From the NCBI GenBank assembly GCA_010093995.1, contig ML992502.1, forward strand, positions 199,868-263,867: a stretch of 64,000 nt of DNA, given 5' to 3'. The notes below the pieces were generated by a model. The model was not told where the DNA came from, made no database searches, and saw only the letters and a program-made list of their open reading frames with translations. This document shows, piece by piece, positions 1 through 58,333 of the stretch. The stretch is from Elsinoe ampelina. Its lineage: Eukaryota. The stretch's first letter is position 1; each line of letters starts with the position of its first letter. The position numbers and the translations under genes are program-made.

Positions 1-2342
1 CTAGAGATAGATTAACTATAAGATCTATATCTAGTACTATTATTTATATACTTAGTATACTAGTTATTTAGAAGTTAAAGCTATAAAAAATTATTATATT
101 ATTAAGTACTAAGGCTAAATACCTTACCCTTACTAAGACCTATAGAAAGATTAATTAGTTAAGAAATTTTATTATTAAACTTAGGCTACTTACTAATATT
201 TACCTTAGCCTAACTATAGTCTTTATTAATAACAAATTAGCTATTAAACTTATAAGAGATTATACTAACTTAAGGAGATCTAAGTATATTAATCTAAGGA
301 ATTATTACTATAGAGAGTAGTATAAACTTAAAGTAATTAAGCTTAAGTATATTAATATAACTTAGTAATTAGCTAATACACTTATAAAGCCTAAGTCTCT
401 TAATAAGATTCTTAATTAATTAGTAAAGGCTAATTACTTAGTGTATATCTATACTATACACTTATTTAGATTTTATATATATTGTTATTTTAAGTATATT
501 ATTTATACTACTACTACTTATTAAGCTATCTTATTTGTCTAAAGCTTAAAGTAAATTACTTTATTATTAAGAAGAGAGAAAGGAAAAGCTACTATAACTC
601 TATTACTAGCTACTTATACCTAAGCTATATCTACTACTTAGTACTATTATTACCTTTAATAACCTCTACCTATCCACTACCTTAAATTACCTCTTTATAG
701 AAGAAGAACCCCTTCCCTTATTACTACTAGTAGACCTTATAGAAGTATTAGATCTAGACCTACTATACCTTATTAATGCTAGGCCTAGTATAAAGGCATA
801 AATAGAAGAAAGCTAACTAGAGTAGCTAGTAGCTATAATCCTTATAAGCTCTACTATATAGTTTATTACTATAGTAGCTAAGTTATAAACCTTAGTAGTA
901 GTTAGGTTAGTAAGATCTACAAAGTTTATAGGGACTACTATAAAGTAGTAAGAGTTAGTATAAGTTATTAAGGTATTAACTACACCTAATAATACCTCTA
1001 GTATATAGGCCCTTAGTAAGAACCTCTAAGGCAAAGTACTACTAAAAGAAATAGATCTTAGGAGCTCTATTAGTAGGTATATTAGGCTATATAGAATAGA
1101 CTAAGTAATAACCCTTAAGCTACTTAGGGTCCTTATAGGTTTAGGAGAGCTAATAGGCCTTAGAGTTAAAGTATAGTTAGCTAAGAAACATCTAGCATAT
1201 TAGTTACTATAAGCATAGTAAGTATAGGCCTTATTAAGCTAACTAGGTAAAGTAATATACTTACTAAACTTGCTACCTCTACTCTTACTCTAATTATTAC
1301 TAGGGTTAGATCCCTAATACTTAGTATAGCAATTAGTACTATAGTAGACTACTCTACTAGTAGCACTAGAAGCTATTAAAGTAGTAGAGTAGTTAGTAGA
1401 TCTAGTAAGGTTAACTTACTTAGTTAGATCCTTAACTAGAATAGGATTAGTAACTACTAGATATATACTATAGGTACTAAAGGCCTAGACTACTATAGAC
1501 CTCTAGATAGAATATAAGTTAGTATAGTTATAATAACTAATTATCCTAAGCCTAAGGAGAGTATTCTAGATTATATCGGCTAACTATTAAGTTAAAGTCT
1601 AAGTTAATTAAGCTATTAATGTTAGCTTATGCTATTAATGCTTTATAGCTACTTACTAAGGGTATTAAGACAAGTAATTAGTCTTATAGTAGTATTATAA
1701 TTAATATTAGAAGTACTAGGCAACCTTAATAGAGAATTTCTCTTCTTACTACTACCTCTACTACCTAGTAGACTACTTAGAGTACTAGCACTAGTAGTAA
1801 TGCTACTAATGCCTAGCTGTTACTACACTATAGCGCTTATATTATAAATGTTATTAATATAGTATAGTAAGAAGGTAAAAGTGTTATATAAAAGAAAAGG
1901 CTACTACTATAAGTATAATAAAGGAAAGAGAAATTATAAAGAGACTAGTTAGATACTTATATCTCTTTAATTAAGACTTATAAGCTAGTCTATTTATATA
2001 AATAATAGCTATCTAGCTATTATTAGTAGTTACTATTGTTACTAGTAATTATAAGCTAAACTAATAGTGAATTCTCACTAATAATTAGCTAACACTAACA
2101 ATTATAAGCAATTATAAAGAGATAAAGTAATAAGCTAATTACTTTACTTACATATAACAGGATAGTTCTCTAGCTTTAATAATCTATACTAGAGAGGGAG
2201 TGTTATAATAGAAGGCTAGTATAGCTTCTCTAGTACTAAAGAACTGGCACTAATAAGTCAGCGCACGCACAGTAGATAAATCGGTTATTATAACTCTCTA
2301 AATGAAATATACGTCTCTCGATCCGATTTGCCAGTTACAACA
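1..2342 (+). mobile_element. 3' part of a RIP-degenerated Ty1/copia LTR retrotransposon (truncated by the window start)
   Basis: Very AT-rich, TpA-rich and CpA/TpG-poor (RIP signature). About 215-392 translates as IVFINNKLAIKL...RRSKYINLRNYYYRE*YKLKVIKLKYINIT**LANTLIKP, which reverts by C>T/G>A changes to the copia RNase H motifs DNKSAI...RSKHIDLR.H..RE...QLADALTKP. The region ends with a PPT and an LTR. Confidence 0.88.
2201..2342 (+). repeat. 3' LTR (142 bp) of the copia element
   Basis: Begins TGTTAT directly after the polypurine tract AGAGAGGGAG (2191-2200) and ends ACAACA (TG...CA with a short inverted terminal repeat, one RIP-type mismatch). Base composition returns to normal immediately afterwards. 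Confidence 0.75.
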
Positions 2343-2634
2343 ATTTGCCCCGGAGTTTTAGCCCGCGGCGCTGGGGGACGGCCCCGCTGCTGAGGCTCAT
2401 AGTGGGGCTCTCTCACAATGAAGCATCGATATTGTCATTGGCGTATTTGATATCACTATTCTAGCAGACAAAGCTTGGTAGTTATCCAGTGTCGTATGTC
2501 TTTTCGACGAGGACCTGTCCAATATGCACATGGTCACCCCGGCACAACCCATGACCAACAACATATCCTGATAGACTCTATATACATCCCGCTCCGAATG
2601 TCCAACCACAACGTTCCCTCCCTTTCCCCTCCCC

Positions 2635-4596
2635 TCACGTCCCCTCCCCCGTCTCCACCATCTCATAAAACAACAAATAAACCTCCCTCTCCTGCTTCAA
2701 CACATCCTTCGTCGTACACTCCTTGACCTTATCATCACTAATCCTCCACCACCTGCTACTGCTCTTCTTCGCCTTCTTCTTCTCCCTCTCCCCTTTAAAC
2801 CGTTCCGCCACCCTCGTCATGCTGCTCTTCCGCCGCAAATCCGTCTTCCTCCCTGCCGCGCTCCCCGTCTCGGTCCCCGTCACCGACACCGCGGACGAGG
2901 GACTGCTGGCTCGTGTTTCCTCCGTCGCGAGGGTGCCGCTGAGACTAAGGCTGCTTCGGCTTTTGTCGCCAGAAGTCACCGAGGAGGCGCTCTCGCTTGG
3001 ACCGACGGGGCTTTGGGCGCTGGCTGCGTCAGGGTTACTGTTGGAGGAGCTGGTGGTGGTGGCGTTTTCGTCTACGCTGCTGAGGGCGGGGGAGATGACG
3101 TCCTTGCTCGTGCGGGCTTTGAGGGCGGGACTGGGGAGGGCGCTGCCCCGGGGTGTGCCTAGGTTGCTGTACAGGCCTGATTCGCCCATGGACACGGGAG
3201 CGAGGTAGGGTTCGCGGAGCATTTGCCGGCGGAAGCTTTCGTAGTGGCCGGAGTTGTGGCCGCCTTTGTGGGTCACAACGCCGAGGAGGCGGTAGGAGAC
3301 TTGATCGAGGATTCCGCCGAGAGGGAGGGTCTCGGGGAAGGAGACCTTTGCGAGATTTTTGGCGGAGGAGGTGGTGTTGTCCCACATGCTGCGGGACAGG
3401 TGGATAGCGAGGACGCGCGGGAATGAAGATATTCGGGAGTGGCGAGCGATCTTGCGTTTTGGTGCTTCCGAAGCTGGGGGTAACGTGATGTCCTTTGGTG
3501 GAGATTCTGGGTCCTCGGCTATGCATTTCTTGAGTGCATCAATGTCCTTCTTCAAATCGGCAGTCGTGCTATCCCCTTCCGTGGACTTGGACGAGACCTT
3601 CGCCAGTGCTGTGAGTTTCGTCTCCAACGCGTGTGTCATTCGACACTTTGCACACTTGAAGTCATCAATGTGCTCCACCTTCAGCATGCCATCGAAGCAA
3701 GTTGATAAGGACGTCGAGTTTCCACCCTGCGGCACATGCAGCGTCAACGTCACAAACGACGACGCACTCGGCCGCGGCTTGAATCGACAATGTGTGCACT
3801 CAATCTGACTCTCGATCTTCCCCTCGAATGGGAACGAAGGATGACTCTCCTCTTCCTTACCATCCTCCTCCCCCTTCTCCGGCACCACCTCTTTCCCCTG
3901 CCCTTCCTGCCCCATATCACTACTCCCCTTCCTATCCAATCCCTCTCCCACCCTCCTTCTCCTCCTCGCCCTCTTCCTCGCCTTCATCCCCGCATAAAAC
4001 TCCTCCGCCAACCTCTCCGTCACCAACTGCAAAAACTCCTGCGCATCCTGCTGACTCCGATTAATCCTCGTCCTGAAAGCCTGCTCCAACGCCCCGACAA
4101 ACGCCTGCGCCGAGAGCGTCTTCCTGTATATCGGCCTCTCGTTCAACGCATCCAGCATCTCCTTCAGCGCACTCGTGATCAGGCCTTGCTGCAGACCCCG
4201 TTGTTTCCACTCCGGTGTCTTCTCTCCCTGCCGCTTGAACGGAGCGATCTCGTCGTCGCCTTCTTTCCCCTCTCCTTTCGGGTCTGTCTCGGATGGCTCC
4301 TCTTCTTCTTCGAAAACATCATACACTCCCTTTCCCTCCATTCGCCGTAGATGTAGTTCCCGGATCAGATAGACCCGCAGCTCCGGCACGCCGGCTAGTG
4401 TCTGCAGCACACTGTTGATGAAGCAGTCGTTGGCGGGATTGGCGAGGCCGACGATGCCTCGTTTCCGGCTCGAGCGGGTCGATTGTGCGGCGTCGTCGTC
4501 GAGGAAGAAGGTCGGGCCGAAGACATAGACGAGTGTGACGGCCGCGAGGGAGGCGCCGGCGGCGTAGGCGGCGATTTGCAGGGGTTTGTCGGGCAT
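2635..4596 (-). CDS. Ubiquitin-specific protease (peptidase C19), Ubp16/USP30-like with N-terminal membrane anchor
   Basis: 653-aa ORF with Cys box GLANPANDCFINSVLQ, QQDAQEF, His box VVTHKGGHNSGHYESF and C-terminal WWRISDDKV...YLLFYE. The N-terminus is hydrophobic. Confidence 0.92.
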   Translation of the reverse strand: MPDKPLQIAAYAAGASLAAVTLVYVFGPTFFLDDDAAQSTRSSRKRGIVGLANPANDCFINSVLQTLAGVPELRVYLIRELHLRRMEGKGVYDVFEEEEEPSETDPKGEGKEGDDEIAPFKRQGEKTPEWKQRGLQQGLITSALKEMLDALNERPIYRKTLSAQAFVGALEQAFRTRINRSQQDAQEFLQLVTERLAEEFYAGMKARKRARRRRRVGEGLDRKGSSDMGQEGQGKEVVPEKGEEDGKEEESHPSFPFEGKIESQIECTHCRFKPRPSASSFVTLTLHVPQGGNSTSLSTCFDGMLKVEHIDDFKCAKCRMTHALETKLTALAKVSSKSTEGDSTTADLKKDIDALKKCIAEDPESPPKDITLPPASEAPKRKIARHSRISSFPRVLAIHLSRSMWDNTTSSAKNLAKVSFPETLPLGGILDQVSYRLLGVVTHKGGHNSGHYESFRRQMLREPYLAPVSMGESGLYSNLGTPRGSALPSPALKARTSKDVISPALSSVDENATTTSSSNSNPDAASAQSPVGPSESASSVTSGDKSRSSLSLSGTLATEETRASSPSSAVSVTGTETGSAAGRKTDLRRKSSMTRVAERFKGEREKKKAKKSSSRWWRISDDKVKECTTKDVLKQEREVYLLFYEMVETGEGT

Positions 4597-22239: not shown

Positions 22240-24039
<1,800 letters not shown>

Positions 24040-24460
24040 TCAGTAATATTGTACTGTGGCGCTCTGCTATGTCTACAGTCGTATTATGAGGATGTTCCCT
24101 ACAACTCCAGATGTGGTCGCTGAGTTTTGTCCACAAAGACACGGGATTTGCAGGATTAGCACGACGCGTATATAGCTACGAAATCCGTCTTGAGAATCGA
24201 GATAATGAGATTGATTGGAAGTTGAAGACCGCCGATAGTAATGCTGTTCGTGATGGCGTGATACAACATGGTGCATTATTGGCGGGGTGTGGGGCGAGTG
24301 TCGGCATCGCGGCCCGGGTAAAAAAAAAAAGGGGTTGAGGGGGTCCCCCATCACATTTGCTCACTTGCATTTTCGGTCATATCTCCACCAAAACTAATTC
24401 AATCGGCTCCAAACTTCGAGAGCCGATAGATCTCATCGTTTTGCACCGACGGATATGCTC

Positions 24461-24473
24461 AAAAACGCAAAAA
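24461..24473 (-). terminator. Pol III oligo-T terminator of tRNA-Thr(AGT)
   Basis: TTTTT-GCG-TTTTT on the minus strand, starting 2 nt after the discriminator base. Confidence 0.75.
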
Positions 24474-24474
24474 T

Positions 24475-24635
24475 TGCTTCTCACAGGAATCGAACCTGTG
24501 ACCTCGTCATTTCGACCGAGAGCAACCCGAAGAACGAGTGCCAAGACTACTAGTGACGCGCTCTACCCTTCAAGGTGTTAGCTTTATTCCTGTGTTGTTC
24601 AGGAAGTGTGGAAACTCACACTGAGCTAGAGAAGC
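24475..24635 (-). tRNA. tRNA-Thr(AGT) with two introns: spliceosomal-type insert in the D-loop (24568-24619) and a canonical 37/38 intron (24511-24547)
   Basis: Exons 24635-24620, 24567-24548 and 24510-24475 join to 72 nt: GCTTCTC TA GCTC AGT/GGTA GAGC G CGTCA CT AGT A/A TGACG AGGTC ACAGG TTCGATT CCTGT GAGAAGC A. All four stems pair perfectly; B box present; two T5 runs downstream. Confidence 0.92.
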
Positions 24636-24994
24636 ACGTTTTTGATGGGAGACCGCAAGGTAGCAAATTATATGTAGTTTTGTGTGGCTCGGCCGCTTAC
24701 GGCGCACGGACCGTCCCCTCCCGAATCCACGGAACATCTGAACATGTACTTTGCGTGTGAGATCACCACATCTACCCTGACATAATTCGATCAGTACCTG
24801 CCTCAATTACACTGTAGGGCGCCAGAACATGGAATACCTCGTGAGAGATAATATGTAATTGGCGGGCAACTATATCAAGATTTGAGGTCGTCAATCGCAC
24901 CTCAGCCACGCAAGCAATTGTCGAATTGCTTCAATAAGACCCGGCTCTGGTGAGAATTGCAGGGCGAATAGTACAATATATTGATCACCCGGTC

Positions 24995-48765: not shown

Positions 48766-50622
48766 ATGTATTCTTCTAGAGTAGTACAGCCGCTGTCTCC
48801 ACCAAGCTCACCGCGCATGTCGGGTCAGGACCATAAGCCAGTTGAGCCGCTCTGGAACGCACAGCAACAGTCTCAGTCAGGCTACGCACCTGTCGGCTCC
48901 AGGTCACAACCGCCCAACACGCTGTCCTATCCTTCTTTCTACAACGCCCGTGAGAGCGGTCAACACGGTGTTCACACCCTCCCGAACATCCACGATGTGT
49001 ACGGAAACCTAGGTCAACCATCGCCGACACATACCGGCAGTCAAAGTCACTCGGCTAGCGGCAATGAGATCGACTTCACGAGAAAAGATACTGGCTCAAG
49101 CGCTGAGTCGCTGTCTTCCCTCCAGCATCGAGACTCGGTGGTGATGCCTTCCTCTAGTTCTCAGCATCCAGGAGGTCAACCTTCTGGCTATGACGAATCT
49201 GAAGACGCAGACGATGACGATGAGATCTCGGACGAGATCGACGAGGGGAAGGAAGGAGGGGAGGACCGGCCGATGACTGCTGCCGAGATCAGACAGCAGA
49301 AGAGAAAGATGAAACGCTTTCGTCTCACGCACAGCCAGACGAGGTTCTTGATGAGTGAATTTGCTCGACAGGCGCATCCGGATGCCGCGCATCGAGAGAG
49401 GCTATCCCGGGAAATCCCTGGCCTGAGTCCTCGTCAAGTGCAAGTTTGGTTTCAAAACAGGTAGGCTCACCCACCCGCTGCTTTTCAGACAGGCATGGAA
49501 TTCATTAATCTGACAGACGATCCAGGCGAGCCAAGCTCAAACGGCTGAGCGCTGAAGACCGCGAAAGAATGATGCGATCGAGAGCCATACCCGAAAGCTA
49601 TGGTATGGGACTGCCGATCAACCAGCAATACATCCCGTCTCCTTCGACTGCTGGTTCAACAACTCCATCCATCCCGCAGAACCCCCCAATGAGCCGGATG
49701 GGCGATATGCGACCACTCAGTCTTGATACCCTGCGACGTGGTACTGAGCACAGTTACACAAGCCCGACTTCTGTCACCCCTGGCCTTGGATCACTGGCCT
49801 TCACCCCTCCACAGTCCGCGAGCGATGTGCAGTCGCCGATCTCGACCACAAACGAGATGGGATTCGGCTATGGTCACCGTGCCATCATGGAACAGCGACG
49901 ACCTCTTCTTCCACCCAGCCACAGCTCTGCGCCATCTTTCACGAGTAATTACGGCTCGAGTATTGGTCGGATGCCATCTTATGAACGATTGCGTACTTCT
50001 AGCGGCGACTCGCTCGGCTCACCTCTCAGGACCAGTATGTCATACTCGAACTTCTCAAACACGTCACCGCAGGCACACCAGAGCCAGGACACGAGAGACC
50101 AAGGCCAGCAAAACGCTGGGCAACAAGGCTCTCATAGTCGAGGAAACTCGCAACGCGATATGCCTCCACCTGCTGGACCGTTCGGTCTTGGATTCTCTTG
50201 TGAGGATGCTAAGGGAATTACGGCTGATTTAGGCTAATATCGTTACAGTTGAGAATATGCCCAATAATCAGTCAAGTGTCCACACACAGCAACAAGCACC
50301 ATCTACTAGTGGATCCAATCAGCCAGCATATCGAGGAATCGCGCCACCCTCCAACACTCAAGGCGCATATCCGTCTTACTTTGACTACCAAAATTCCAGC
50401 TACTCTACGCCTCAACTACCGCATTACCAACAACCTTCATTTGGCGGCTCCTACTCTTCACCTCTATCCTCAAATCCGTTCACCCAAGCACCTATGCATC
50501 AACAGCAGCAGGCGTACGGCCAGCATCAACAAGCTCACCAGAATGCTCAGCAAGAACGCGCCAAAGAAGAGCACGAAGGACATCACCAACAAGGTGGTGT
50601 ATCCATCAGCAACCCATACTGA
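48766..50622 (+). CDS. Homeobox transcription factor (resembles Podospora PAH1 type)
   Basis: Homeodomain KRKMKRFRLTHSQTRFLMSEFARQAHPDAAHRERLSREIPGLSPRQVQVWFQNR/RAKLKR; introns 49461-49525 and 50200-50248. Confidence 0.9.
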
Positions 50623-50671
50623 ACCAACAATACAAAACATACAGTACACAGTACTATGCACATAGACCATG

Positions 50672-51334
50672 TCAACATTGCGACTTCCTGCGCTGCTTCA
50701 GAGCACGATACCCCTTCACAACATTCCTCAACGCCAGTTTATTGACGACGCACCACGCGATCATGCATGCACATACAGCCAGCACGACTTTCCCTACATC
50801 ATCTACTTCAGCAAACAGATCTCTGTCCGACACGAGATCCGTCTCCACTTCAGCACAAAGTCGACACTCGCACCCCTCTGGCAGGAACGAACGCACGACA
50901 TCATTATCGACCTGCACTAAAGGCACAACCTCCCCTTCTTTGGCGCAATATTTACCGCCCATCCGCTCCTGGGATTCTTGTTTCACGCGCGCGCGTCGAA
51001 TTTTTTTTACAGCACTTTGGATCAAAAAAATTCGAGATACCCACGGCGAGGCTTGCTTTGATGTTATTGTTACGGATCTTTTCGCTTCGCGCTGTCCTTC
51101 ATGCTCGGCATGTCTTGGTTTTGGGTTGTATGGATTTGTACAGATGAGACATAGGAGGTGGAAGAGGAGCAAGAGGAGGAGGAGGCAGGGAAGGAGAGCA
51201 GGGGCGAGGCAAGGGCGGATAGCGATCTGGTATTGCACGTCGAATCGCAGAGGCAGCAGAGAGGGGTCTAGGGAGAAGAGGGAGATGTAGTTGACGAGAG
51301 AAACGGTGAGGCATTGCTCGTCGCTCCTTTGCAT
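50672..51334 (-). CDS. Possible hypothetical protein
   Basis: 220-aa ORF with two hydrophobic stretches and no recognised motif; may be spurious. Confidence 0.2.
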   Translation of the reverse strand: MQRSDEQCLTVSLVNYISLFSLDPSLLPLRFDVQYQIAIRPCLAPALLPCLLLLLLLFHLLCLICTNPYNPKPRHAEHEGQREAKRSVTITSKQASPWVSRIFLIQSAVKKIRRARVKQESQERMGGKYCAKEGEVVPLVQVDNDVVRSFLPEGCECRLCAEVETDLVSDRDLFAEVDDVGKVVLAVCACMIAWCVVNKLALRNVVKGYRALKQRRKSQC

Positions 51335-52354
51335 CGCATTTGGGTCAGTGTGCGCACCGGCTTTTGGGGTCCAGGGCTTGGGTTGGGTAGTGTCTTGTCT
51401 GTCTCTACGAAATGCATAGTATTAAGCGTGACTAATTGACTTGTCATCCCCTGTTTAAACCTTACATGGCGATGTCAGGCTCAAACTCCAGCTTTCTCTT
51501 TGACATTCACGTGCCTTTACACCATACCAGGACACAGGGATAATTGATCCTGGGCGCACCCCCCTTCTCGTCCAGAGCAGAAATCCTGCCCCCGACGCCA
51601 CGAGCATGCTTTCAGCATTCAATGACGCCTTGACTGGCATCCTGCGAAACTCTATGTCCAGAGCGTGATTGTGGCGGGGATAGGGTTGGGTGTTTCTGAA
51701 ACAGATCTACTTGCCGTGAGCCGCATCTTCGATGTCCGGGTAGACCAAGGTTGCGGGTGAAACAGCCGCTGCTGGGGAGAGAGGGGAAAAGAGGGCAAGG
51801 GGAGATAGAGGTGCAGTCACTTGAGCGGGAAGGGGCAATTTGGGAGCTTACATCCGTTCCGGGTATCGAGGAGGGAGTGATGAGCAGGGAGAGAGAGGAT
51901 GACTGAGCGGTGCCCTAGATTGTGGTTGACTTGGGGCTGGAGGGCGGTATGTAAGGATAGTTTCGAGATACATGCCGTGCTATGCTGACCGCCTATTTCG
52001 TCATGTTGCTGACGCTGATGCTGATGCACGAGGCTGTGTCTGCGACATGTTCAATGGCGTTCACCCACCATGATTGCTCAAGAGAATTTGGCGGACTAGA
52101 GCACAAAATTGCTCTTGATTCCAACCGAGCATTTGCTGAAGAAAAACTCTTTCTCAACGACTGGTTTACTCACATATAGAGACTCGTTGGGAAATGGGTC
52201 TTGCATTGTTAACAATGGTGCTGCAAGCGGGGGCCGATGCCTGCAATGCCAGGATACACGCTCGGTGGTCTCTTGCTTGAGCTATATATATGATCAAATT
52301 TGCCACCTTCGTCGATGTTCGATCGAAGACACCTGGGAATGGATGTTTTCACTT

Positions 52355-52477
52355 GCCGGGTTGGCGCAGTGGGTCAGTAGACACCCTCGGAGATCACACT
52401 CCTCAGTCTGACGGGATAACTAGTAACGCGTCGCACTTGTAATGCGAAGATCCCAGGTTCAATTCCTGGACTCGGCA
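52355..52477 (+). tRNA. tRNA-Thr(TGT) with a spliceosomal-type insert in the D-loop (52373-52423)
   Basis: Exons 52355-52372 and 52424-52477 join to 72 nt: GCCGGGT TG GCGC AGTGG/TA ACGC G TCGCA CT TGT AA TGCGA AGATC CCAGG TTCAATT CCTGG ACTCGGC A. Acceptor (one G-U), anticodon and T stems pair; T6 follows. Confidence 0.92.
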
Positions 52478-52483
52478 TTTTTT
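52478..52483 (+). terminator. Pol III oligo-T terminator of tRNA-Thr(TGT)
   Basis: TTTTTT immediately after the discriminator A. Confidence 0.8.
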
Positions 52484-53800
52484 GATCTTTTTGAGCTCTC
52501 TAGGGTGCTCTTTATGATCCTTGGAAGCTTATACATCGAATGGAGTAAATCAGATAATCAAAAATTTTGCTCTACCTTTCGCTACGTGTTGATGAAACTC
52601 TGCTTGGAACGGACTGCCCCGAATTTGCCAAGATTTCACATGCGCAGAGCCGCAACGCCTGAACGTTGATATTGTTCTTGCAAGGAATGTCAATTTTTGG
52701 TCATGTCGGCGAAAATATCATTCACAAGTTCTCAATGTTGCACTAACCTCTGGGATGAGCTTCTGCTGCATACTGGTACCAAAAACTGCACACAGATCAT
52801 CGAGGTCATCCGATCACCCGTCCACAACCATCATGCACGTGCTGCACCGGGTAACGAGGATGCAGACGACCGTGTACTACGGTGTCCACCAGTCAATTGT
52901 CAGATCACATTTCTGATGATATGTTTGTGTTCATTATGTGAGCAATAGCCGCTGGCATGGAATACTGCATCTAATGGATGAGGACATGTCAGGAAACCAT
53001 GACGTGGAGCTGCCCACGATCTGTCCAACCTATCTGTCCAAATCTGTCTCAGGGGCTCTCTCAGCTCCCAAGCTGGACAAAGCCGCGTCCTGAACCAAAA
53101 AAAGAGTCGACGAACTACTCCTGACGTGCAAGTCTCAGATGGAACGCGATATTATAACGTGTCGCGTCTCAACAGAAGCCCTTCATAGCTGTAGAGCTGT
53201 AGAGTCATCATACCATGAGATGACTGATCTCCTGCTCACAAAAGATACGTGTGAAATCACATCTCGGCTGCACAGAGTCATGTCCTTGTGGCTTGGCCGC
53301 TCCTTGCCCTGTCCGAATGGAGGAAAATGAAGTAAAGTGACATCGATCTCCGCCTAAATTACCCTTCGACAAATTCTTCCATAATCTTTCGAATCTCCAT
53401 CAAACCACCTCCACCCAAAAGGCGATATCCATTTCGTCTTTTCCTTGCGTGTCTGTCTCTTCTGTAGATAGACGATCGCTTTGTTCTTGCATCGTGCTTG
53501 TCCAGCACCAACCGCTAGGACAAAGAACCGTTGGGTTCATCCTCCTTGGACCTCACGCGCTCGGACGGCATCCCATTGCCATCCCCGTCCGCCCTTTTCT
53601 TCGGTCTCTGCACTTAAGAGCACCTCACACGCCTGGTATCGTCGACTCGAGACGTGCCCCTTCCATCTCCGCTCATCGCAACCTGTATTTCATCGGTCGC
53701 GTCGCGGATTTGACATCTGACTTCGCCCGGAAGCAGCAAAAAAAGTAACACCTGAAAATTTCCGCACAGCCGCTTTTCGCATCAAACCGACAACAATCTC

Positions 53801-56800
53801 ATGACAAGCGCAATCCCGACGGCACCTGTTCAGGCAAAGTCGACCTCGTCCATCAGCGTGCCCACTCAGACAAACCCTCGCAACCCTTCCCCGATCCCTG
53901 CTGTGCCGGCGCAGCTCCCCAAAGCTTCCTACGCCAACGCGACAAAGCCCACCTCTATCAACCCACAAGCGCCTATAATATCGTCGACGGGAGCTCAGGC
54001 GCCCGTGCAACATGGCAAGGTAGACACACACAGCTCGACAGGTCCAATGTCAGCATCTTCGCCTGCCGTTGGTAACCCCAGCGGCAACCAAACCGACTTT
54101 TCCAGGCAGGATAGTCATGGCAGGAAGCCTTCGGTGGTCATCAGCGCATCAGGAGCTAGTGGTCAGATACCAAATGGAGGTCCTGTCGGTCAGAATACTC
54201 GTCCCAATATTGCTTTTGGTTCGATGATGAACAACCAAGGTTCGCCAGCTATCGCAAGCAGCTCTTCAGCATACCCTCCACAAAACACCTCACTCCCTGT
54301 GAGAGGAGCCGACCCACGCATCACATCGCCAGCGCACTCTCCGGCGCCCATTCCTCAACCACCTGCTAGTGGAGGCAAACCTCCCCAAGGTATCTCTGGA
54401 CAGGGTAATGGAATTGTTTTTGGGAGCTCGGGGGCTGAGAATGGAGATTCCAATGTGAGTTTAACTCTAATCCACCAGCGTGAATTTCGAACCTGGATGT
54501 GTAAATTCATTTTTCTGGACACAACAAACTATGAACTATGAAACTAATATTTAATCAGCTTCGTGCCTCTCAAGGTCCTCTCACTCCTTCTCAACAACCT
54601 GCACACCTTCGAAGGGAATCTTCGCAATCTGCACATAGCGATATGAGCGGTGTTGGTATGCAAAATCGCCAGTTCATGCCCAACGGCCGTGGTCGTGGGA
54701 ACTTCATACCCCAGTACGGTACACCACACTCTCCTGCCATGGGTTATCGTCAGCCTTCTCGTGGCCCCATGCCTGGCCAGTTCCAGAATCAGCCGAATAT
54801 GTTCAACTCGCCCAGAGGACGGAACAGCCCAGCGTTGATGCCAGCGCAACCCCACATGCCACAAGGAATGCCAGGTCAGCAGATGCAGTACGGAGGGTAC
54901 CCACAGCACCTGAATCCTGCAGGTTATGTACGTTCACTCTTCCATGATGAGTTTGCCGTTGTAGTTCCTAACTGTTCTCAGCCACACATGTACATGCAAG
55001 GCATGAATCAATATGATCCCAACGCAGGTTACTACCAGCCCTACTACCCCCAACAGGGCTACCAAGGTGCACCACCCAGCCCACGTCCTGGTCAGCAGTA
55101 TCCCAACAGCTATGGCGGACCACCACAACACGCATCTCCATATCATCCTCCCAGCATGTCGAGGAGCGGTTCCCAGGCTTCCGAGCGACCAGCCTCCAGC
55201 CTCGGTAGCAGACCACCTACCACCGCGAGTAATGTTCCTCCATCTTCCACTCCACAATCGACCACTCCGGTCACCCCAATCTCATCAAACTTTGTCAAGC
55301 CTCAAAAATCCAAGGCCATCGTCATCAAGAATGCCGCTGGCGAGGAAGTTCACTTTGACAAGAAGTCGTCGCCTGCCCCTGTCGCCGCTCCTGCGCCACC
55401 ACAAAGTCCTGCCATCGTCGGCTCGACCCCTACTCCGACCCCGCCACCTCGCGCACCTAGTGCCACCAAGCAGCATGAGCGAGCCGAGAGTCGAAACCCA
55501 AAGACAGACAACGATATCAAGACTGGATTCCAAGAGCAGGTCAGGAAGCAGATCGAGGCACAGAAGGAGGCAGAGCGCAAGAAGCAAGGCGGCGATGACA
55601 AGGCTGCTGCTGTTGACGATGTCAAGTCAGCCGACGCCGCTTCGAGCGAAGACAAAGCCGTCGAGGAGAAGGCAAAGGCGACTGAGCCTGCCAAGGAGGC
55701 TCAACCCAAGCCCGACGTCGAAGCAGCTGCTCCAGCCATTGCTGAGAAGGAGACTGCTCCTGCCGAGAGTGCCGAAGACGCTGCCGCTCGCAAGAAGCGC
55801 GAGGACGACGAAGAAATGGAGCGCATGATTGCCGAAATGGAGGCTGCTGAAAAGGAGGAAGAAGAGCGCGAGCGCAAGCACCAGGAAAAAAGAAAGGCAG
55901 AGGCCGAAGAGAAAAAGAAGCGCGAGGCAGAGATTTCAGCCAACGCTGATGCTGAAATGAAGCGTCTCGAGAGGGAAGCTGAAGAGACAGAACTTCAACG
56001 GGAGAAGAAAAGAGAGGCCGAGTCAAAAGCCCCTGCTTCGAAGGAGGATCAGGATCTCTTCGCCCAGCTCAAGAAGCCTTCTCTCGGACCTGGTGCCAAC
56101 GCATCGGCCGAGCCAGAGACACCTGCAAGCGAGGACGTCCCATCCAGGACTGCTACTCCGGAACTGATGGCGGCTCCACCTCGATCCGCTGGCAAGCCCA
56201 AGCCGAATCCCCTCAAGCTTAGAACAGACAAGCCCGTCGAGCCAGCACAGCCGACACCTGGTATGCAGGCGCTCAAGTCTGCTCGTCTACTTGACCTCAA
56301 GCGTGAAAGCATCAACTACCCAGAAGGCATCCAGTCACCGAACCCCGCGCTCAACAACACTGGCAAGCAACGCGGTCTGCAGTATGACAAGAACTTCCTG
56401 CTTCAGTTCCAGGAGGTGTTCAAGGAGAAGCCTACCATCGACTGGGACCAAAAGGTCAAGGACACTCTCGGCGATTCCGAGCCTGGGTCCGCCCGACCAT
56501 CTGCCAGCCGACAGGGCTCTGTCTCCATGGGTCCAAGACAGCCATCAAACCGTGGTCCTTCGGTTCCTTTCCAGACAATGGGCTCTTTCGGTGGCCCTTC
56601 ACGCACGTTGCCACCTGGTACTACCTCGATGGACCGTTTCAATGCCGCCCAACAAGGCATGCGCCCCATGGGTGGCATGAACTTCGGAGGTGGCCGTGGA
56701 GGATTCCCAATGGGTCAGCCGATGTCGAGACAAGGCTCGCTGCAAGCCATGGGTAACCCGCCGTCGCCTCGACCTGGTGGATCTCGAGGTGGTAAGAGCA

Positions 56801-58333
56801 AGCGTGGTCCCGACCGGGCCATGAGCCGAAAGGAGGAAGAGCAGCATAACAAGTCTATGCCTCTCACCGCCGGTATGGAACTGAAGGGTCTCGAGAAGAG
56901 TTCGACCGGATGGACTGCCCGCAGTATCGGCGCTCCTGCTGCGGCTGCTGCCACTGGTCCTGACGGCATGATGCCTCCTGACATGGTGCAACGCAAGGTC
57001 AAGGCTGCCCTCAACAAGATGACTCCTGAGAAGTTTGAGAAGATCTCCGACCAAATTATGGAGATTGCCAACCAGTCCAAGAACGAGACCGATGGCAGGA
57101 CCCTGCGACAGGTCATCCAGCTTACTTTCGAAAAGGCTTGCGACGAAGCTCACTGGGCTGGCATGTACGCCAAGTTCTGTCAGAAGATGTTGACACAGAT
57201 GAGCAACGAGATCAAGGATGAGACGATCGTCAAGAACGGCCAGCCCGTAACCGGTGGTGGTCTGTTCAGAAAGTACTTGCTCAACAGATGTCAAGAGGAG
57301 TTCGAGCGTGGTTGGGAAGCAAACCTGCCCGAGAAGCCAGAGGGCGAGACCGAAGAGGCAGCCCTCCTGTCTGACGAGTACTACATTGCCGCTGCCGCAA
57401 AGCGAAAGGGTCTTGGTCTCATCCAATTCATCGGTGAGCTGTACAAGCTTGGCATGTTGACGTACCGCATCATGCACCAATGTGTGCTGCGACTGCTCAA
57501 CTTTGAGGGTCAGCCAGATGAAGCTGCCGTGGAGAACTTGTGTCGTCTGCTCCGAACGGTCGGTGCCACCATGGACAACTCGGACGAGCAAGGTCACGGT
57601 CTTGTCAACGCCTACTTCGAGCGTATTAACAACATTCTCGACCAGAACAAGGACATGCCATCAAGACCACGCTTCATGCTCATGGACGTCATCGACCTTC
57701 GCAAGCATGCATGGCAAGACAAGTCTGCCTCCAAGGGCCCAAAGACAATCCAGGAGATTCGCGCCGAAGCAGAAGCTGCACAGGCTGCACAGGAGCTGGA
57801 GCGACAGAAGACGAACATGCGTGGTGGTCGTCCACCTGCTGGAAGGGGCGATGCACGATCGTTCTCTACCCAGGGCATGCCTCCACCAGACCACAACCGC
57901 AACATGGTCGCCATGGACGATCTGCGGAAATTGACAAACAGGAACAACCCTTCGTCGAGGGCGGCGCCTTCTGGTGGGCTCGGTCCCAACTTGGGTCCTG
58001 GCTCGTCTTTGTTTGCCGGCAGGAGTGGCAGCGGTCGAAGAGGTCTCGGTCCTCCAAGAGATGGAGACGCCAGTGGCAACACATCTCGCACCAATACTCC
58101 TCCAATGAAGAAGGAAGAGAAGGAGTCAACTTCAGCAGTAAACTCGTTCAGGTAAGGTGCTCCGAGCTCACTCTTCGTATAAGTCACTAATATTCAATAG
58201 TGCCCTTGCAGCCCTCGAGAATGATAGTAGTGAAGCCGCAGCCCGGTCACCTCCTAGCGAAAAGGCCTCGCCGGCAGTCTCAAAGGCCACACCTTCGATC
58301 GACTCCGCGTCCAATGCGCCCAATGGCGCATGA
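53801..58333 (+). CDS. TIF4631: Translation initiation factor eIF4G
   Basis: eIF4E-binding motif YDKNFLL, MIF4G domain (VQRKVKAALNKMTPEKF...FEKACDE...FIGELYK...GPKTIQEIR). Introns 54455-54558, 54928-54981, 58152-58200; last exon NSF/SALAALE. Confidence 0.94.

Follow-up and report, generated by a model that had tools for sequence, protein, structure and literature searches.

Can a tRNA be a substrate of the spliceosome? The question is raised by a tRNA-Thr(TGT) gene (gene 1) of the fungus Elsinoe ampelina, lying in a 64-kb stretch of contig ML992502.1 (positions 199,868 to 263,867; hereafter the window), whose D-loop is split by a short insert resembling the introns of protein genes. A tRNA-Thr(AGT) gene (gene 2), about 28 kb away in the same window, carries an insert of the same type. 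Passages of PMC3978253 and PMC4090602 place nuclear tRNA introns exclusively at position 37/38, the exceptions being endonuclease-type introns of a few algae and nucleomorphs. In excerpts from PMC10275265 and bioRxiv 10.1101/2025.06.17.660180, tRNA splicing by an endonuclease at 37/38 is contrasted with the spliceosomal splicing of RNA polymerase II (Pol II) transcripts. On every sequence criterion that we tested, both D-loop inserts qualified as spliceosomal-type introns. The explanation that we favor, and to which we give somewhat better than even chances, is that both loci are functional RNA polymerase III (Pol III) tRNA-Thr genes whose transcripts would be spliced by the spliceosome, as are those of fungal U6 genes.

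Two tRNA-Thr genes split in the D-loop

Gene 1 (52355-52477, +) is interrupted by 51 nt directly after G18G19. The preliminary description of this locus had reported an insert that starts with GTCAGT, contains CTGAC and ends with TAG, and its letters and coordinates (Table 1) are all correct. It had also stated that the exons are undecayed and that the A box lies intact just before the insert. We found the same: the stems pair, the T-loop is TTCAATT, the anticodon loop is CTTGTAA, and a run of six T follows the gene. The in-silico deletion of the insert that it had called for joined GCAGTGG to TAACGCG and gave a clean cloverleaf, which ARAGORN called as tRNA-Thr(tgt). This insert-free gene was still called at 115% of the default threshold; two bacterial tRNA-Thr, used as a control, were retained up to 125%.

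Gene 2 (24635-24475, -) contains two interruptions. It was first flagged as an odd 'tRNA-Pro' at 24474-24636 (-) by ARAGORN in intron mode, and was then resolved by eye and by test. Removal of its 52-nt D-loop insert joins CTCAGT to GGTAGAGC. The second intron (37 nt) has no terminal AG and is therefore of the ordinary endonuclease type. With both interruptions deleted in silico, we obtained a perfect Thr(agt) cloverleaf, and the ARAGORN call was kept at 120% of the threshold.

In both genes, deletion of the D-loop insert at its exact GT..AG bounds leads to a canonical 72-nt Thr cloverleaf with discriminator A. As read from the sequence, the restored cloverleaves contain U8, A14, G18G19, A21, U33, A37, G53-T54-T55-C56 and C61. 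Neither gene shows stem decay, all stems being paired and the invariant bases kept. The inserts enter the D-loop at sites 2 nt from each other: that of gene 2 follows T16 and precedes G18G19, and that of gene 1 follows G19. An alignment of the two inserts has 26 identical columns out of 54, mostly at the splice signals. Since the inserts are unlike outside these signals, the sites differ by 2 nt and the exons belong to different isoacceptors, the two genes represent independent cases and are not copies of each other.

Table 1. Coordinates of the parts of the two tRNA-Thr genes and of their flanks (window positions)
Feature	Position	Strand	Content
Gene 1 upstream flank	52283..52309	+	TATA-like run 52283-52291, then AATTTGCCACCTT 52297-52309
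Gene 1 exon 1, 18 nt	52355..52372	+	acceptor 5' strand, U8, D-stem 5' strand, A14-G15-T16-G18-G19
Gene 1 A-box-like TGGCGCAGTGG	52362-52372	+	within exon 1
Gene 1 D-loop insert, spliceosomal type, 51 nt	52373..52423	+	between G19 and T20
Gene 1 insert 5' splice site GTCAGT	52373-52378	+	
Gene 1 insert branch CTGAC	52408-52412	+	branch A at 52411
Gene 1 insert acceptor TAG	52421-52423	+	first AG past branch A, 12 nt away
Gene 1 exon 2, 54 nt	52424..52477	+	D-arm remainder, anticodon arm (TGT), variable loop, T-arm, acceptor 3' strand, discriminator A
Gene 1 B box GGTTCAATTCC	52456-52466	+	in T-arm of exon 2
Gene 1 terminator region	52478..52496	+	T6 at 52478-52483, second T5 inside TTTTTGAGC at 52488-52496
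Gene 2 upstream flank	24657..24672	-	TATAAT 24672-24667 (-37 to -32), overlapping AATTTGCTACCTT 24669-24657
Gene 2 exon 1, 16 nt	24620..24635	-	ends A14 G15 T16
Gene 2 A-box-like TAGCTCAGTGT	24628-24618	-	extends 2 nt into insert
Gene 2 D-loop insert, spliceosomal type, 52 nt	24568..24619	-	between T16 and G18
Gene 2 insert 5' splice site GTGAGT	24619-24614	-	
Gene 2 insert branch CTAAC	24581-24577	-	branch A at 24578
Gene 2 insert acceptor AAG	24570-24568	-	first AG past branch A, 10 nt away
Gene 2 exon 2, 20 nt	24548..24567	-	G18G19, D-arm remainder, anticodon stem 5' strand, loop to A37 (anticodon AGT)
Gene 2 second intron, 37 nt	24511..24547	-	canonical 37/38 position
Gene 2 exon 3, 36 nt	24475..24510	-	A38, anticodon stem 3' strand, variable loop, T-arm, acceptor 3' strand, discriminator A
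Gene 2 B box GGTTCGATTCC	24496-24486	-	in T-arm of exon 3
Gene 2 terminator region	24457..24473	-	T5 at 24473-24469, second T5 inside TTTTTGAGC at 24465-24457

The D-loop-split genes are the only tRNA genes (2 of 2) detectable in the window. The B-box pattern GGTTCRANTCC has two matches (0.18 expected), both of them in these tRNA-Thr genes, and no uninterrupted tRNA gene was found in the window with ARAGORN or with Rfam, at the gathering score or at E<=1. We also deleted each of the 2798 candidate GTNNGT..AG segments of 35-130 nt on both strands and rescanned the products; tRNAs spanning the junction appeared at these two loci alone (six matches, all variants of the two). Left intact, gene 1 yielded 0 genes with ARAGORN. 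The Rfam tRNA model gave it a marginal score of 31.3 bits (gathering score 29), over 52410-52477 only, in an alignment whose acceptor strand is falsely supplied by the 3' end of the insert. Gene 2 had no Rfam match at E<=1 and was miscalled by ARAGORN in intron mode as Pro(cgg) or Ser(cga). Annotation tools thus overlook or misassign such genes. Gaps that appear in fungal tRNA sets could therefore be artefacts, and the counts of tRNA genes in fungi may be too low. We consider it an even bet that the two genes belong to a fungal lineage with spliceosome-dependent tRNA maturation, in which repeated gains of GT-AG introns in the D-loop would have produced a genome-wide class of working tRNA genes missed by the gene finders.

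Splice signals of the inserts and other routes of removal

Both inserts start with a GTNAGT-type donor and contain a CTRAC branch site, and the first AG past the branch A is the one that restores the tRNA, with no earlier AG. The distance from branch to AG (Table 1) compares with 9-20 nt in the other intron-like segments of the window, and the insert lengths (51 and 52 nt) compare with 44-109 nt for strict intron-like segments. Both features match those of the segments abutting open reading frames (ORFs), which measure 47-51 nt with a branch distance of 10, and those of the sulfatase intron described below. Introns of the window measure about 50-100 nt. One, in the eIF4G gene (54455-54558, 104 nt, GT..AG), was confirmed by spliced RNA contigs. 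Another, of 50 nt, lies in the sulfatase gene (23500-23549, -). The preliminary description had noted that it shares the donor GTCAGT with gene 1, which proved right (23549-23544, on the minus strand); the Pfam Sulfatase profile runs across this intron, with profile positions 73-121 before and 141-301 after. In donor, in branch site and first AG, and in length, both D-loop inserts agree with U2-type introns. No run of four T is present in any intron of the two tRNA genes, but for the inserts this absence is uninformative, because TTTT is also missing from all 10 strict intron-like segments (0/10).

To estimate how often such a structure arises by chance, we counted segments that start with GTNAGT, contain CTRAC, end at the first AG 8-20 nt past the branch A and are 40-70 nt long. 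They occurred 1.28 times per 64-kb strand in 60 block-shuffles, i.e. at about 2e-5 per position. As the length of the segment must also exactly restore the tRNA, the odds of such a coincidence would be roughly 1e-6 per gene, and it is encountered twice in the window. The anatomy of the two genes is as described in Table 1, and it is not random.

Removal of the inserts by a non-spliceosomal route, either by the tRNA endonuclease acting at a non-canonical position or by an unknown nuclease together with a ligase, appears very unlikely to us. Portions of PMC4090602 and PMC3978253 do report D-arm introns that are removed by the endonuclease at non-canonical sites in some algae and in Archaea, and the endonuclease is already required by gene 2 for its 37/38 intron. 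Neither D-loop insert lies at 37/38, a position taken only by the second intron of gene 2. The bulge-helix-bulge structure, defined in a passage of PMC3978253 as two 3-nt bulges around a 4-bp helix, did not form: at every equivalent boundary of both inserts, the central helix had just 1-2 pairs out of 4 and the flanking helices were poor. Such a route would furthermore leave unexplained the presence, in both inserts, of GTNAGT, of CTRAC and of a first AG at 10-12 nt.

The inserts might also be retained in the RNA and looped out as an extra arm of a functional, or differently functional, tRNA-like molecule, a proposal that we find scarcely credible. The D-loop tolerates variations in length on either side of G18G19, and both insertion sites are in these length-variable stretches; when the unspliced RNAs are folded to minimum energy, the acceptor and T arms are retained. 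In these folds, however, the inserts form no self-contained hairpin and the D-stem is disrupted, and retention would again leave the splice signals without explanation.

Other identities of the inserts were also considered. Group I or group II self-splicing introns, which measure hundreds of nt, do not fit with a size of just 51-52 nt, and no Rfam intron family was detected in the window at E<=1. Protein-coding exons do not fit either, since no ORF of more than 135 aa is present between 51421 and 53756 or around 24400-24900. We looked for further copies of either insert within the window and found none, the best other match being 13 nt long; a family of introner-like elements is therefore unsupported within these 64 kb.

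The junctions of gene 1 show short direct repeats (52367-52380 and 52415-52427, +), with CAGTGG/CAGTAG at the 5' border and TAAC/TAAC at the 3' border, and 6 of 8 bases are alike between the 3' part of the insert and the 5' strand of the acceptor stem. An origin of this insert by local duplication was given no weight, because such repeats are within what chance would produce (about 0.17 for an 8-mer, by our estimate).

Proposed transcription and function of the two genes

The maturation pathway that we propose is inferred in all its steps. Each gene would have acquired an ordinary U2-type (GT-AG) intron in its D-loop, on one or the other side of G18G19. TFIIIC would bind the A box, which is situated just before the 5' splice site in gene 1 and across it in gene 2, as well as the B box, and Pol III would read through the T-poor intron and stop at the runs of five to six T. 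The spliceosome would then recognise the donor (GUCAGU or GUGAGU), the branch (CUGAC or CUAAC) and the first AG past it; the intron would leave as a lariat, the D-loop would be joined, and RNase P, RNase Z and CCA addition would complete the tRNA. In the case of gene 2, the tRNA endonuclease and a ligase would also excise the 37/38 intron, and both splicing machineries would thus be needed for one tRNA.

The Pol III signals are retained. The A box is intact in gene 1 and matches the consensus at 10 of 11 positions in gene 2, and the B box is intact in each gene; the spacing between the two boxes is enlarged to 83 nt in gene 1 and 121 nt in gene 2. The longest T run in the insert of gene 1 is 1. 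A T6 (gene 1) or T5 (gene 2) begins 0-1 nt past the discriminator and is followed in both genes by a second T5. The flanks of the two genes also have elements in common. The upstream word AATTTGCYACCTT, which adjoins a TATA-like run, has no further occurrence on either strand of the window; it starts 58 nt upstream of gene 1 and 34 nt upstream of gene 2, and a match as good was obtained in 1 of 300 shuffles. Downstream, TTTTTGAGC is similarly unique to both loci on either strand and contains the second terminator, 10-11 nt past the genes; a 10-nt match like the one that contains it was reached in 27 of 300 shuffles. That these elements flank tRNA bodies that are otherwise unrelated suggests common control signals. 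AATTTGCYACCTT with the TATA-like run, and TTTTTGAGC, may represent lineage-specific control elements, whether of tRNA genes in general or of this class alone.

The same upstream elements could be taken as a Pol II promoter. The introns would then be the same, but the transcript would start from the TATA-like run and AATTTGCYACCTT, be spliced co-transcriptionally as mRNAs are, and yield the tRNA after cleavage by RNase P and by RNase Z, in much the way that snoRNAs are freed from host transcripts. Recruitment of the spliceosome is normally coupled to Pol II, the two genes have in common a TATA-like run and a 13-nt upstream word that is unique to them, and each gene is upstream of a protein gene of the same orientation (the sulfatase gene for gene 2, the eIF4G gene for gene 1). 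We nevertheless regard this explanation as improbable: the T5-6 runs start 0-1 nt past the discriminator, as they do in Pol III genes, and the A and B boxes are intact. The RNA data described below provide a weak argument, as contigs of one run cover the neighbours of gene 1 at a depth of 58-420 and none covers gene 1, though contigs cannot show absence. An upstream TATA also serves Pol III tRNA genes in some fungi, according to a passage of PMC3978253.

We analyzed four sequencing runs (X22, X15, X1 and X6) mapped to 50600-54600, a region that contains gene 1, alone of the two tRNA genes; none of the runs listed for 50500-58200 was registered as RNA. Runs X22 and X15 gave 7 and 6 partial reads, none on gene 1, which indicates that the organism was absent from the part of these runs that was read. 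In run X1, a contig joins 54454 to 54559 at a depth of about 420, and the same joint is found in X6. As this contig skips the eIF4G intron, X1 consists of RNA. Run X1 covers the neighbouring genes at a depth of 58-420 (50600-52317 and 53409-54600), while X6 covers only parts of the exons of these genes. Another X1 contig, unspliced in its mapped part, stops at 52317, 38 nt before gene 1.

We also searched for relatives of the interrupted genes, with a pattern comprising a 5' D-arm anchor, a gap of 45-75 nt, the anticodon arm and the B box. In metagenomes this pattern found five loci, none of them interrupted (0/5); all were of one tRNA-Thr(TGT) type, with the anchor matched by chance in the 5' flank, and 2 of the 5 were confirmed as uninterrupted by ARAGORN. 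The same search gave 0 matches in contigs of prokaryotic genomes and in viral contigs.

Several observations weigh against functional Pol III genes with spliced transcripts. The four runs placed nothing on 52318-52992, although X1 consists of assembled contigs, which cannot show absence, and neither an orthologue nor a paralogue of the interrupted genes came out of the metagenome, prokaryotic and viral scans. The TATA-like run of gene 1 is about 24 nt farther upstream than that of gene 2, and four consecutive T are found 7-10 nt before the start of the gene 1 tRNA. The A-B spacing of 121 nt in gene 2 exceeds the natural range of yeast, and Pol III transcripts are generally poor substrates for the spliceosome. 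Finally, the census covers the 64-kb window, and intron-less copies of Thr(TGT) and Thr(AGT) elsewhere in the genome are conceivable.

Such copies are central to the idea that the two loci are dead genes, into which intron-like DNA was inserted, either as a propagating introner-like element or as filler with splice signals, while other, intact copies serve the cell. Fungal genomes usually contain redundant copies of tRNA genes, both loci are missed by standard finders, their A-B spacing is stretched, and the runs analyzed placed no transcript on gene 1. We think that this is unlikely, though less so than the other alternatives. The exons are undecayed, with ARAGORN calls that persist at 115-120% of the threshold, and the terminators and shared flank motifs have been retained. 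The inserts are copies neither of one another nor of anything else in the window. In dead genes, complete and well-spaced splice signals that restore a tRNA in two instances would have no reason to persist.

Relation to known introns and genomic setting

If both genes are indeed matured by the spliceosome, the precedent is provided by U6. Spliceosomal splicing of the transcript of the Pol III-transcribed U6 gene of Schizosaccharomyces pombe has been proven experimentally, and many other fungal U6 genes contain up to four introns, which have canonical signals and are otherwise unconserved, as reported in portions of PMC5855946. The same excerpts mention spliceosomal introns in fungal U1, U2 and U5 snRNA genes and in rRNA genes, and an excerpt from PMC5832005 describes them in fungal U3 snoRNA genes.

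Judging from these excerpts, the two tRNA genes resemble the fungal U6 genes in having a small, non-coding host of the Pol III type and short introns with a canonical 5' splice site, branch and 3' splice site. They also resemble them in that independent insertions took place at nearby but different positions, and U6 genes may have several. Unlike U6, the host is here a tRNA, which is outside the catalytic center of the spliceosome, and its splicing is a prediction. The reverse-splicing origin proposed for U6 introns is thus not directly applicable, because a tRNA does not take part in the active site. By analogy, the present case would work like that of U6, but in a new class of host. With the introns of ascomycete rRNA and of fungal U1, U2, U5 and U3 (parts of PMC5855946 and PMC5832005), the inserts share the occurrence of GT-AG introns in abundant structural RNAs other than mRNA; those hosts, however, are Pol I or Pol II transcripts, and none is a tRNA.

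Among tRNA introns, the nearest in position are those of Cyanidioschyzon merolae, of cryptophyte and chlorarachniophyte nucleomorphs and of Archaea, which according to passages of PMC4090602 and PMC3978253 may similarly be located in the D-arm, number more than one per gene and escape gene finders. Unlike the inserts described here, with their GT..AG borders and branch site, those introns are cut by the endonuclease at a bulge-helix-bulge or a relaxed variant of it. Canonical nuclear introns are found at 37/38, as is the one that gene 2 has beside its D-loop insert (24547-24511); the D-loop inserts differ from these by their positions at 16/18 and 19/20.

Introner-like elements of fungi are multi-copy spliceosomal introns that have propagated recently. 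Like them, the D-loop inserts are short fungal introns of the spliceosomal type, which can arise at new sites; unlike them, they are single-copy in the window and dissimilar to each other. The literature that we searched, which did not cover subscription journals, yielded no account of a tRNA gene with a spliceosomal intron, so a prior description is possible.

Should our interpretation be correct, these tRNAs would be the first known to be substrates of the spliceosome and would form a second class of spliced Pol III transcripts. Thr-AGT would require the spliceosome in addition to the tRNA endonuclease and ligase. A tRNA dependent on the spliceosome would blur the line between spliceosomal introns of Pol II transcripts and tRNA introns removed by the endonuclease, a line to which the reviews consulted note, as exceptions, fungal U6 and rRNA genes on the one side and non-canonical endonuclease-type introns of a few algae on the other. 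It would also mean that the spliceosome can act on a Pol III transcript that is short and highly structured and has a 5' exon of 18 nt. It would further bear on the choice of sites at which new spliceosomal introns enter non-coding RNAs, a question discussed in part of PMC5855946.

The window has the appearance of nuclear DNA from a fungus of the filamentous-ascomycete type. It has a GC content of about 52% and contains ordinary housekeeping genes, encoding eIF4G, a Ski2-type helicase, a ubiquitin hydrolase, a homeodomain protein, a GDS1-type protein, a sulfatase and kynureninase. Gene 2 is a few hundred bases upstream of the sulfatase gene, on the same strand. The first 4 kb (1-4000) have a GC content of 0.40, compared with about 0.52-0.55 elsewhere, and include AT-rich intron-like segments at 1373-1419 and 1613-1656 (-), which adjoin the ubiquitin carboxyl-terminal hydrolase ORF (2638-4596, -).

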